Positions 28,603 to 29,501 of a stretch of DNA of 64,000 nt are shown here, piece after piece. The DNA is taken from the IMG/VR virus record IMGVR_UViG_2675903278_000002, one strand, 5' to 3'. Each line of letters begins with the position of its first letter. The stretch's first letter is position 1. The DNA comes from a virus. Lineage: Duplodnaviria > Heunggongvirae > Uroviricota > Caudoviricetes. Made by a program: the position numbers and the translations under genes. Under the pieces are notes generated by a model that saw only the letters and a list, made by a program, of their open reading frames with translations, ran no database searches and was not told the origin of the DNA.

Positions 28603-28884
28603 ATGGCATACGGTACAGGGATTTACAACAATAAAGGAATTAACGTTACTGGCTTCCTTACTCCTATTTTTTTTCTTGATCGATTTACTGCGTCATCAGG
28701 CTCTAAGACGTACTCCAATCCGCCACCGGGTAAATCGCTACATGCCGTGTGGTCATTGATGCCTCTTAACAACGACAACTACATTAATTTACCTGTTCCA
28801 ACAGTTACTATTAATGGAAATACGGTTAGTTGGTCAAATTTATATACGGGGCTTGGTTCTTACATATACACATACTGGGGATAA
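28603..28884 (+). CDS. hypothetical protein (low-GC insert)
   Basis: 93 aa, Asn/Tyr/Thr-rich; by eye lower GC than neighbours. Confidence 0.4.
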   Translation: MAYGTGIYNNKGINVTGFLTPIFFLDRFTASSGSKTYSNPPPGKSLHAVWSLMPLNNDNYINLPVPTVTINGNTVSWSNLYTGLGSYIYTYWG

Positions 28885-28886
28885 TT

Positions 28887-29501
28887 ATGTTCGGGATGTC
28901 AATTACTCAATCAGATGGAAGTTTGTGGATGAGTCCAGAATTTACTCCGCAAAATCTGATTAATAAAGGGACAATGTCTACATCTAAAGGTTCTGTTTTT
29001 CAAACATCAATCCCATCAAACAAATCATGCTTTTTCTTCATAAAAAGCAGTAATAAGGCGAACATGATGTTTATTCATGAGCATAGTAACGGATACAATG
29101 CTCTCAGATTGCATCAGGTAAATGGTAGCCCCGGAACAATAACAGTTTATGCTTTTTCTGATATGGTGTTACCACATTCTGGCTATGGCATTGCCATGTA
29201 TAACAGCGCAGGCGCAATGGTGTATCACGGTGAGATGATGCCCCTTGATGCGAAACTTATCACTATTTCTGACCCTCAATTTACAATAGATATGGGGTAT
29301 CCATGTGCGGTAATGCCTGCTATGGTTGGGGTATATAACTATAGACGAACCGATTACGACAGACCTGTCTATGTAACAATGACAGGTGCAACTGGAAACC
29401 AAGTATATAACGGTCAATGGTATTCCGGTAATGTCACATGGGATATTAAGAAGATTTATACAAACAAAATTCTGGTGATAAATACCTCCAAGTATGATTA
29501 G
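28887..29501 (+). CDS. hypothetical protein (low-GC insert)
   Basis: 204 aa from in-frame ATG 2 nt after upstream stop; Tyr/Asn/Gly-rich. Confidence 0.45.
   Translation: MFGMSITQSDGSLWMSPEFTPQNLINKGTMSTSKGSVFQTSIPSNKSCFFFIKSSNKANMMFIHEHSNGYNALRLHQVNGSPGTITVYAFSDMVLPHSGYGIAMYNSAGAMVYHGEMMPLDAKLITISDPQFTIDMGYPCAVMPAMVGVYNYRRTDYDRPVYVTMTGATGNQVYNGQWYSGNVTWDIKKIYTNKILVINTSKYD

Follow-up and report, generated by a model that had tools for sequence, protein, structure and literature searches.

Among small siphoviruses, a 'bona fide RBP locus' (RBP, receptor-binding protein) downstream of gpJ was described by Maffei et al. 2021 as being exchanged horizontally, and the BASEL authors reported a similarity dip and frequent horizontal transfer for RBP loci (PMC8594841). 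This locus was identified as the determinant of receptor specificity both there and in a preprint (10.64898/2026.04.02.716166), which confirmed the correlation between locus and receptor and presented AlphaFold3 models of RBP-receptor complexes. The same kind of gene pair, encoding a small and a larger protein, was studied by Matusiak et al. 2025 in phi24B, a Dhillonvirus and a Littlefixvirus; the 'membrane' annotations of the pair were judged wrong, and the larger, 'hand-like' protein was modeled as a monomer that caps the trimeric spike tip and contacts FhuA or BamA. In the cryo-electron microscopy (cryo-EM) preprint on phi24B, gp54 (204 amino acids, aa) was found in the virion structural proteome at low abundance, gp55 was not detected, and extra density of low resolution was seen at the needle tip. 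Here we analyzed a homologous pair of open reading frames (ORFs), ORF1 and ORF2, that forms a cassette in a 64,000-nt stretch of viral DNA (IMG/VR record IMGVR_UViG_2675903278_000002; the whole stretch is called the window). The 2.3 kb around the cassette is 100% identical to many plasmids of Escherichia coli and E. albertii (102-126 kb, mostly 106-113 kb) and 98.6% identical to the phage-plasmid Cyrano (pLF82), and partially matches Salmonella phage SSU5, which by sequence places the window in an SSU5-like E. coli phage-plasmid of the Cyrano/pLF82 type.

We consider it fairly probable that the cassette is a detachable, swappable host-recognition module for the tail tip of a siphovirus-type virion, relocated outside the tail module. 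ORF2, with its two duplicated beta-sandwich domains, would be a monomeric RBP capping the trimeric, 'knife-like' C-terminal tip of the J-type central fiber, and ORF1 would be its small beta-sandwich partner, a co-adaptor or an assembly helper. With both proteins, the virion would specifically recognize a receptor that is an outer-membrane protein. In this phage-plasmid lineage, the module sits as an exchangeable ~1-kb cassette with a small gene of the early region on one side and a DNA methyltransferase gene on the other, and this ectopic pair would take the place of the divergent one found in the tail module of SSU5 and other relatives. In this analysis, the reading draws on family membership, synteny with J elsewhere, natural fusions, a fold match, the insertion/deletion and allele swap, purifying selection and an either/or distribution; from published work it takes the phi24B homologue in the virion, the association with BtuB, the predicted docking at the tip and the silence in lysogens. 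Docking on the J tip of this element, the kind of molecule bound, the time of expression and the presence of the proteins in the virion are inferred.

Families, folds and composition of the two proteins

ORF1 matched phrog_557 (E = 4.7e-29 over residues 1-93) and ORF2 matched phrog_425 (E = 2.2e-72 over residues 1-204). The family is small, with 114 cluster representatives among 1.84 billion proteins, and includes natural fusions of ~315 aa made of an ORF1-like and an ORF2-like part (P0080, P0106), which argues that the two products work together. The order of small gene, then large gene, also occurs in JenP1, tonn, Stx2-86, SSU5 and the metagenomic contig L010. The AlphaFold2 model of ORF2 (predicted local distance difference test score, pLDDT, 80) is all-beta with two beta domains, and the model of ORF1 is a soluble, generic beta-sandwich. 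The N- and C-terminal halves of ORF2 aligned with each other in HHalign on a 93-sequence family alignment (probability 88%, E = 3e-6), so ORF2 is an internal duplication. The predicted ORF2 fold matches a solved RBP caught on its receptor (Oekolampad/Bas18 RBP, PDB 9RPT). Conservation of ORF2 is highest at aa 1-24, 85-120 and 133-144 and at the C-terminus, mostly in segments of low pLDDT; in the model, these segments would fit interfaces, with the domain bodies being variable. The earlier guess from the sequence alone, that the chemistry of these proteins recalls receptor-binding or lectin-like domains, holds in spirit.

ORF1 and both domains of ORF2 begin with a short motif, [YF]-G-x-x-[IM]-x-[NQ]-x-x-G ... 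P. Alignment of ORF1 with either half of ORF2 was in register and not significant (E about 0.02); that the three motif copies match the three-fold (trimeric) J tip is only an idea. The ORF2 family profile had no match in a PDB sequence search at E up to 10, neither ORF had a match in NCBIfam, and Pfam gave only a sub-threshold match to DUF6453 (E = 0.012). This match was not used; the natural fusions have no DUF6453 match. An outer-membrane or Lom-like identity was rejected as well (no hydrophobic N-terminus, highest 19-residue Kyte-Doolittle mean 1.1, soluble beta-sandwich models).

Several properties read from the sequence by the first-pass annotation were borne out by calculation. The two ORFs are coupled, with the ATG of ORF2 2 nt beyond the stop codon of ORF1, and each has a Shine-Dalgarno sequence (AAGGA at 28592-28596 for ORF1 and GGGGA at 28877-28881 for ORF2). 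We took the ATG at 28887 and not an upstream TTG as the start of ORF2, because the homologues of 203-206 aa begin with M(F/Y)G. The AT-richness that had been seen by eye corresponds to a G+C content (GC) of 0.389 in the cassette versus 0.463 in the window (z = -2.47), which falls in the lowest 2.2% of all 899-nt windows; equally low values occur only in two other regions, at 22.7-23.0 kb and 46.0-47.5 kb. At third codon positions, the GC is 0.37 in the cassette versus 0.42-0.59 in the flanking genes. The deviation is real but moderate. The reported richness in Asn, Tyr, Thr and Gly was also found and extends to Ser, with enrichments of 1.3- to 2.7-fold over a reference set of 15 window proteins (for ORF1, Asn 11.8% vs 4.4%, Tyr 8.6% vs 3.2%, Thr 10.8% vs 5.6% and Gly 10.8% vs 6.4%; ORF2 follows the same trend). 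The absence of a signal peptide likewise stands, with the highest 19-residue Kyte-Doolittle mean at 0.9-1.1, and transmembrane segments are absent too.

The inverted repeat described upstream of the pair proved to be a hairpin with an 11-bp stem (28550-28560/28567-28577; -17.5 kcal/mol, z = -3.5 vs shuffles). The hairpin has no U-tract, is not a canonical terminator, and no terminator was called there. Its leader is nearly the same in PhiR41_1, an element otherwise near-identical to the window, with one substitution and one 1-nt indel despite the diverged coding sequences; by this comparison, the hairpin is part of the conserved frame of the cassette-bearing lineage. A role as terminator or as boundary repeat of the cassette was rejected; no direct repeats flank the insert. 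The statement that the region lacks motif A or B, which we took to mean the two over-represented motifs found here, GAAAAACACATG and AGAAAACAACTTGTTT, is also correct: both are absent from 28528-29544, and the nearest copies lie before the upstream gene, at 27944 and 27969.

Placement of the pair and exchange of the cassette

In every other lineage examined, the pair or its fusion adjoins a central-fiber gene with a J-type C-terminal tip. JenP1, JenP2 and BRET have the pair beside J in convergent orientation, and the T1-like, Warwickvirus-type phages tonn and Bas04 and the contig L010 have it beside a J-type fiber gene; in Bas04, the locus consists of a lipoprotein gene and the pair. In contigs L013 and L014, an ORF1+ORF2 fusion starts 1-4 nt downstream of J. 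In the Shiga toxin (Stx) podovirus Stx2-86, the pair directly follows the needle gene, and the C-terminus of the needle protein gp26 matches the J tip of JenP1 (E = 7e-9). In this element, the pair is not beside J but between the PHROG 5508 gene and the methyltransferase gene, about 60 kb from J (in Cyrano). The first-pass annotation had named homologues in conserved core synteny as a finding that would speak against its reading; such synteny exists, beside J, in the other phage lineages, and not at this locus. J itself lies outside the 64-kb window, so that the Cyrano record (98.6% identical) served for the test of its tip. There, the tip domain comprises the last 190 aa of J, with 38% identity to the JenP1 J tip and 32% to that of Bas04, and this domain matches 1604 phage records.

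The relatives that lack the cassette at this site carry a pair elsewhere. In SSU5, the divergent pair SSU5_023/SSU5_024 (phrog_557, 7.6e-22; phrog_425, 7.5e-44) has 27-30% identity to the window pair and sits with a Cor exclusion gene behind the tail fiber genes, and p4_0.2, an E. coli element with an empty site, has a pair of 84 aa and 188 aa at the same place of its tail module. Cyrano and NZ_CP020118.1, which have the ectopic cassette, have no pair in the tail module. In a blastn search with the tail-locus pair, SSU5 was the only match among the phage records, and none of four cassette-bearing records was hit. Among the plasmids, the ectopic pair is present in 118 records and the tail-locus pair in 74 Escherichia/Shigella records, of about 210, so that the two counts roughly account for the Escherichia/Shigella elements. 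Meanwhile, the J tip of Cyrano is 99% identical to that of p4_0.2 and 89% identical to that of SSU5. Each of the elements examined thus combines this tip with a single pair, in either of the two places. The idea that the J tip varies together with the type of cassette was rejected, because elements with the ectopic pair and those with the tail-locus pair share 99% identity in the tip.

Two observations were made on individual records of this comparison. The alignment of SSU5_024 (L015 12653-13219) begins only at ORF2 residue 15 and at PHROG profile position 17, and the true start of this protein is probably about 14 codons upstream of the annotated one. In NZ_CP020118.1 (L017 2043-4277), which is 100% identical to the window over the cassette, the place expected to have an intact J is taken by a 1.4-kb 'DUF1983' gene with an IS1 immediately upstream; J appears to be interrupted, the fragment being identified by its position, and this copy may be defective as a phage.

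The cassette is a ~1-kb insertion/deletion polymorphism among SSU5-like phage-plasmids. At the empty site of SSU5 and p4_0.2, the 189-aa and methylase genes are separated by about 95-140 bp with a strong rho-independent terminator (GGGGGCgaaaGCCCCC-T6 in SSU5), and in records without the cassette the two flanks are contiguous, aligning as two pieces that span 1204 bp. The insertion replaces about 95 bp, in which this terminator and the final codons of the upstream gene lie. Since it has replaced the terminator of that gene, the pair is probably co-transcribed by read-through from the 189-aa gene. A crude consensus scan of 28548-28602 and 29502-29604 found neither a promoter-like site nor a terminator. 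The check for presence and absence among related elements that the first-pass annotation had proposed gave a clean polymorphism: the cassette occurs in 118 of 701 related plasmid records, all from Escherichia or Shigella, and this allele alone was found, almost always plasmid-borne, in 150 of 5,426 complete E. coli genomes.

The alleles of the cassette differ far more than their surroundings. Between the window and PhiR41_1, identity is 78-89% exactly over 28600-29500 and 93-100% outside, and the synonymous divergence (dS) is 0.84 and 0.67 in the two ORFs vs 0.09 and 0.19 in the flanks (4-9x). In the same comparison, the ratio of nonsynonymous to synonymous divergence (dN/dS) is 0.075 and 0.10 for the two ORFs; the cassette is under purifying selection. 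A third allele, with 49% (ORF2) and 60% (ORF1) identity, occupies the same neighborhood of another SSU5-like contig. The low dN/dS, the dip in identity, the conserved leader and the third allele together argue that the locus is functional and that its alleles are swapped inside a frame that is conserved. The virulent phages JenP1, JenP2 and BRET have the pair too, with 76.5% DNA identity to the cassette. Of the earlier proposal of a recent horizontal acquisition, the acquisition is therefore supported, by the presence/absence polymorphism, the relatives in virulent phages and the dS hot spot, whereas the recency is not: the GC of the family is low in every genome examined (0.384 in JenP1, 0.418 in Stx2-86 and 0.417 in tonn, each below the neighboring genes), and since low GC accompanies the gene family everywhere, it is no clock for a recent arrival.

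Competing explanations

The first-pass annotation had called the two genes a moron, that is, a lysogenic-conversion cassette that would be expressed from the resident plasmid-prophage and would modify the cell surface or exclude superinfecting phages. PHROG places phrog_425 in the category 'moron, auxiliary metabolic gene and host takeover', the legacy names speak of 'outer membrane' and 'membrane associated' proteins, the cassette is AT-rich and variably present, and the pair adjoins lom in Stx phages and a Cor-type or lipoprotein exclusion gene in SSU5 and Bas04. Nevertheless, this explanation is largely refuted and we regard it as very improbable. In the RNA sequencing table of LF82 lysogens, CYRAN_88 and CYRAN_89, both near-identical to the window genes, have values of 7.6 and 11.4, compared with 7-10 for their neighbors; that is, they are at the local background, and they are neither among the genes at least 5-fold above background nor among the 13 Cyrano morons. 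This silence in LF82 lysogens leaves the moron claim unsupported, as do the lack of an export signal and the presence of the phi24B homologue in the virion proteome. Neither N-terminus has a lipoprotein signal or a lipobox cysteine, as would be expected of a Cor/Llp-type exclusion lipoprotein, and the PADLOC defense models have no match to ORF1 or ORF2 at E up to 1. Furthermore, no promoter-like site or terminator of its own was seen for the cassette in the crude consensus scan, the pair also occurs in strictly virulent phages, and the exclusion function in the Bas04 and SSU5 loci belongs to a separate lipoprotein gene. Fainter still are the chances of the current RefSeq name of ORF2, a cysteine peptidase with a family C39 domain, which the Prokaryotic Genome Annotation Pipeline (PGAP) gives to WP_000467662.1 in recent assemblies (e.g. 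L012 1485-2099): Pfam and NCBIfam give no such match, and the ORF2 model is all-beta where a papain-like fold with a Cys/His dyad would be expected. We give it practically no credence; the name is probably wrong, and it will propagate.

The pair could instead be a non-essential tail accessory, such as a tip decoration, a chaperone that assembles or stabilizes the J tip, or an auxiliary adhesin, which aids adsorption or host range without defining the terminal receptor. We find this unlikely, but the knockouts in the Stx2 phage Sp5 keep an auxiliary tip protein a serious rival to the receptor-binding protein itself: Sp5 without ORF72 or ORF73, its homologues of the pair, still forms plaques and lysogenizes K-12, while the needle gene ORF71 is essential. 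The low abundance of phi24B gp54 and the failure to detect gp55 fit an accessory as well, as does the generic beta-sandwich of ORF1, and Matusiak et al. 2025 themselves raise 'structural or chaperone-like roles'. On the other hand, the locus tracks BtuB dependence in T1-like phages (Bas04, JK16 and MartyMcPhage all carry the pair and are all BtuB-dependent), the fold of ORF2 specifically matches a solved, receptor-bound RBP, the family shows conserved putative docking segments and variable domain bodies, and the allele swapping seen here is the pattern that the BASEL authors describe for RBP loci. The searchable literature holds no receptor data for JenP1, JenP2, BRET or PhiR41_1. A position outside the tail operon, together with a J tip domain common to more than 1,600 sequenced phages, also raises the thought that the module, made by the resident phage-plasmid, might act in trans, capping or retargeting the J tips of co-resident, co-induced or superinfecting siphophages and so poisoning or hijacking their virions, which would amount to tail-tip piracy or to interference among mobile elements. 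The very wide occurrence of the tip domain (the 1604 phage records above), the placement in the early region, and the fact that two pairs with only 27-30% identity to each other evidently both function on an identical J tip would suit such a role; however, the either/or distribution is more simply explained by use on the element's own virion, and we hold a role in trans to be very improbable.

Several points weigh against a host-recognition module at the tail tip. The genes lie here among early and DNA-metabolism genes, on the same strand, without the context of a late operon, and the ORF2 monomer model is of low confidence at aa 1-20, 93-101 and 115-119. The either/or pattern was checked record by record in seven elements and otherwise comes from counts. 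In Sp5, ORF72 (92 aa) and ORF73 (205 aa) were individually deleted in frame and do not belong to the nine genes on which the formation of plaques or lysogens on K-12 depends; in Sp5 at least, the pair is dispensable under laboratory conditions. The published support for binding of a receptor or a J tip by PHROG 425 proteins consists of genomic correlation, AlphaFold models, low-abundance proteomics and low-resolution density, and the RBP gene identifiers of the preprint (10.64898/2026.04.02.716166) do not map unambiguously to the 204-aa gene.

Surroundings, significance and comparison with known systems

The features of the locus are listed in Table 1. The cassette is surrounded by genes for an RNase H, TciA/TciB-like proteins, the 189-aa PHROG 5508 protein, a DUF4942 methyltransferase and Ead/Eaa-like proteins; the 189-aa protein has 61% aa identity to SSU5_094.

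Table 1 Features in and around the cassette (positions in the window)
Feature	Position	Strand	Remark or basis
Upstream native gene, 189 aa, PHROG 5508	27944..28547	+	both element-wide motifs in front
Motif sites before the upstream gene	27944-27959 and 27969-27980	+ (27969-27980)	motif scan
Inserted segment, approximate extent vs empty-site relatives	28528..29544	+	flank alignment with E. coli p4_0.2 and SSU5
Hairpin, 11-bp stem, 6-nt loop, right after the stop codon of the upstream gene	28550..28577	+	fold energy
ORF1, 93 aa, PHROG 557, legacy name 'outer membrane protein'	28603..28884	+	small beta-sandwich partner protein (putative)
ORF2, 204 aa, PHROG 425, 'hand-like' protein, legacy name 'membrane associated protein'	28887..29501	+	candidate receptor-binding protein
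ORF2 domain 1, aa 1-97, opens with conserved M-F/Y-G-x-x-I...G...P	28887..29177	+	HHalign of halves
ORF2 domain 2, aa 98-204, duplicate of domain 1, starts GYGIAMYN, ends with conserved LVINTSKYD	29178..29498	+	HHalign
Inverted repeat, perfect, 16 bp, 12-nt loop, outside the cassette	29563-29578 / 29591-29606	+	right arm overlaps the methylase start codon (29605)

The inverted repeat at the methylase start folds strongly (29495-29610: -29.4 kcal/mol, z = -4.7) and may control translation or transcription of the methyltransferase. An imperfect version of it is present in the empty-site element p4_0.2, because of which we rejected it (29563-29606) as a feature of the cassette; SSU5 has a AGAAAACAATTTGTTT motif there instead.

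The element has two recurrent motifs. Of GAAAAACACATG, the window contains 9 copies (0.65 expected), all on the + strand and spread over 691-32577 (for example at 5766, 9992, 17031, 27969, 31343 and 32566); those compared with called ORFs end in the start codon (700, 10001, 17040, 27255, 27978, 31352 and 32575). This motif appears to be a non-canonical context for translation initiation common to the native genes of the element, in contrast to the ordinary AAGGA and GGGGA Shine-Dalgarno sequences used by the cassette. AGAAAACAACTTGTTT, which includes the palindrome AAACAAnTTGTTT, has 17 copies (0.07 expected), with sites for example at 27215, 27944, 39404, 42589, 43073, 44726 and 54328-54371; the copies checked (27215, 27944 and 54328-54371) are upstream of genes. 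Copies are also found just upstream of the small-terminase gene, and in SSU5 one copy lies directly upstream of the methylase gene. This motif is probably an operator or promoter element for a regulator encoded by the element.

Other regions of the window are also unusual. On the + strand, a stretch of ~650 nt at 40880-41540 is extremely rich in A+C and poor in G+T (GC skew -0.45, AT skew +0.49) and contains recurring short words such as GCCATTAC(C/T)C and GGCTACCG(A/G)A; it has no ORF of at least 150 aa, no tandem repeat and no Rfam match, and may be either a structured transcript or a region with an origin or iterons. Further low-GC islands (0.36-0.40) at 22697-23900, 46000-47500 and 49001-49500 deviate as much as the cassette or more, and may be further variable cargo. 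Cyrano (L007 43137-46576) has genes whose annotations read cobalamin synthase and dimethylbenzimidazole phosphoribosyltransferase (CobT), which is curious given that the receptor to which relatives of the cassette are linked, BtuB, is that for cobalamin; this may be a coincidence or reflect a misannotation.

Phage-plasmids of the SSU5 type are frequent in E. coli from clinical and animal sources. If the cassette is a host-recognition module, then its presence or absence, its alleles and the alternative pair at the tail locus would predict which strains are infected or lysogenized, and host range would become testable from sequence. Three names in the databases ('outer membrane protein', 'membrane associated protein / moron' and 'C39 peptidase') are misleading and are corrected by the analysis, which also adds a structural link from the PHROG 425 family to the one solved RBP of this class; on the strength of the predicted fold, receptor-binding families that have been treated as unrelated may have a common origin. 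RBP genes need not sit in the tail module, which matters for search tools based on gene position. The class of module has been recognized only recently, and the relocation to the early region is special to this phage-plasmid lineage.

Among the known systems, the pair bas04_0023/bas04_0024 of Bas04, the BtuB-associated Warwickvirus allele, resembles the cassette in its homologous proteins of 92-93 aa and 204 aa (40% identity for ORF2), in gene order and gene sizes, in AT-richness relative to the neighboring genes, in horizontal exchange between unrelated phages and in the J tip domain held in common. It differs in lying directly beside J with a lipoprotein exclusion gene in front, whereas here the exclusion gene is missing and the element is a temperate phage-plasmid. 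The Stx pair (phi24B gp55/gp54 = Sp5 ORF72/ORF73, ECs1234/ECs1235 = Stx2-86 gp27/gp28) is more similar in sequence, with 61% identity for ORF2 and the same gene order; it is located just downstream of a needle gene with a J-type tip, and gp54 is in virions and is a proposed BamA binder. Unlike the cassette, it belongs to a podovirus virion and to a late operon next to lom, and is dispensable on K-12 by experiment. In SSU5_023/SSU5_024/Cor, the same two PHROG families occur in the same kind of element with a J tip that is 89-99% identical, but the proteins are only 27-30% identical, the genes are in the tail module, a Cor gene accompanies them in SSU5, and their presence excludes the ectopic cassette in the elements examined. 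The RBP of Oekolampad (Bas18) on LptDE (PDB 9RPT; PMC12685063) is like ORF2 in fold, by comparison of a predicted with a solved structure; it has 254 aa, 11% identity and no detectable relation at the sequence level, and its partner is a lipoprotein exclusion protein and not a PHROG 557 protein. At last, T5 pb5 (Oad) with Llp and the receptor-binding domain at the C-terminus of lambda gpJ follow the same functional logic, in which a receptor binder, monomeric or terminal, sits at the central fiber's tip, with pb5 being a separate, non-covalently attached protein (summarized in Maffei 2021 and Matusiak 2025).

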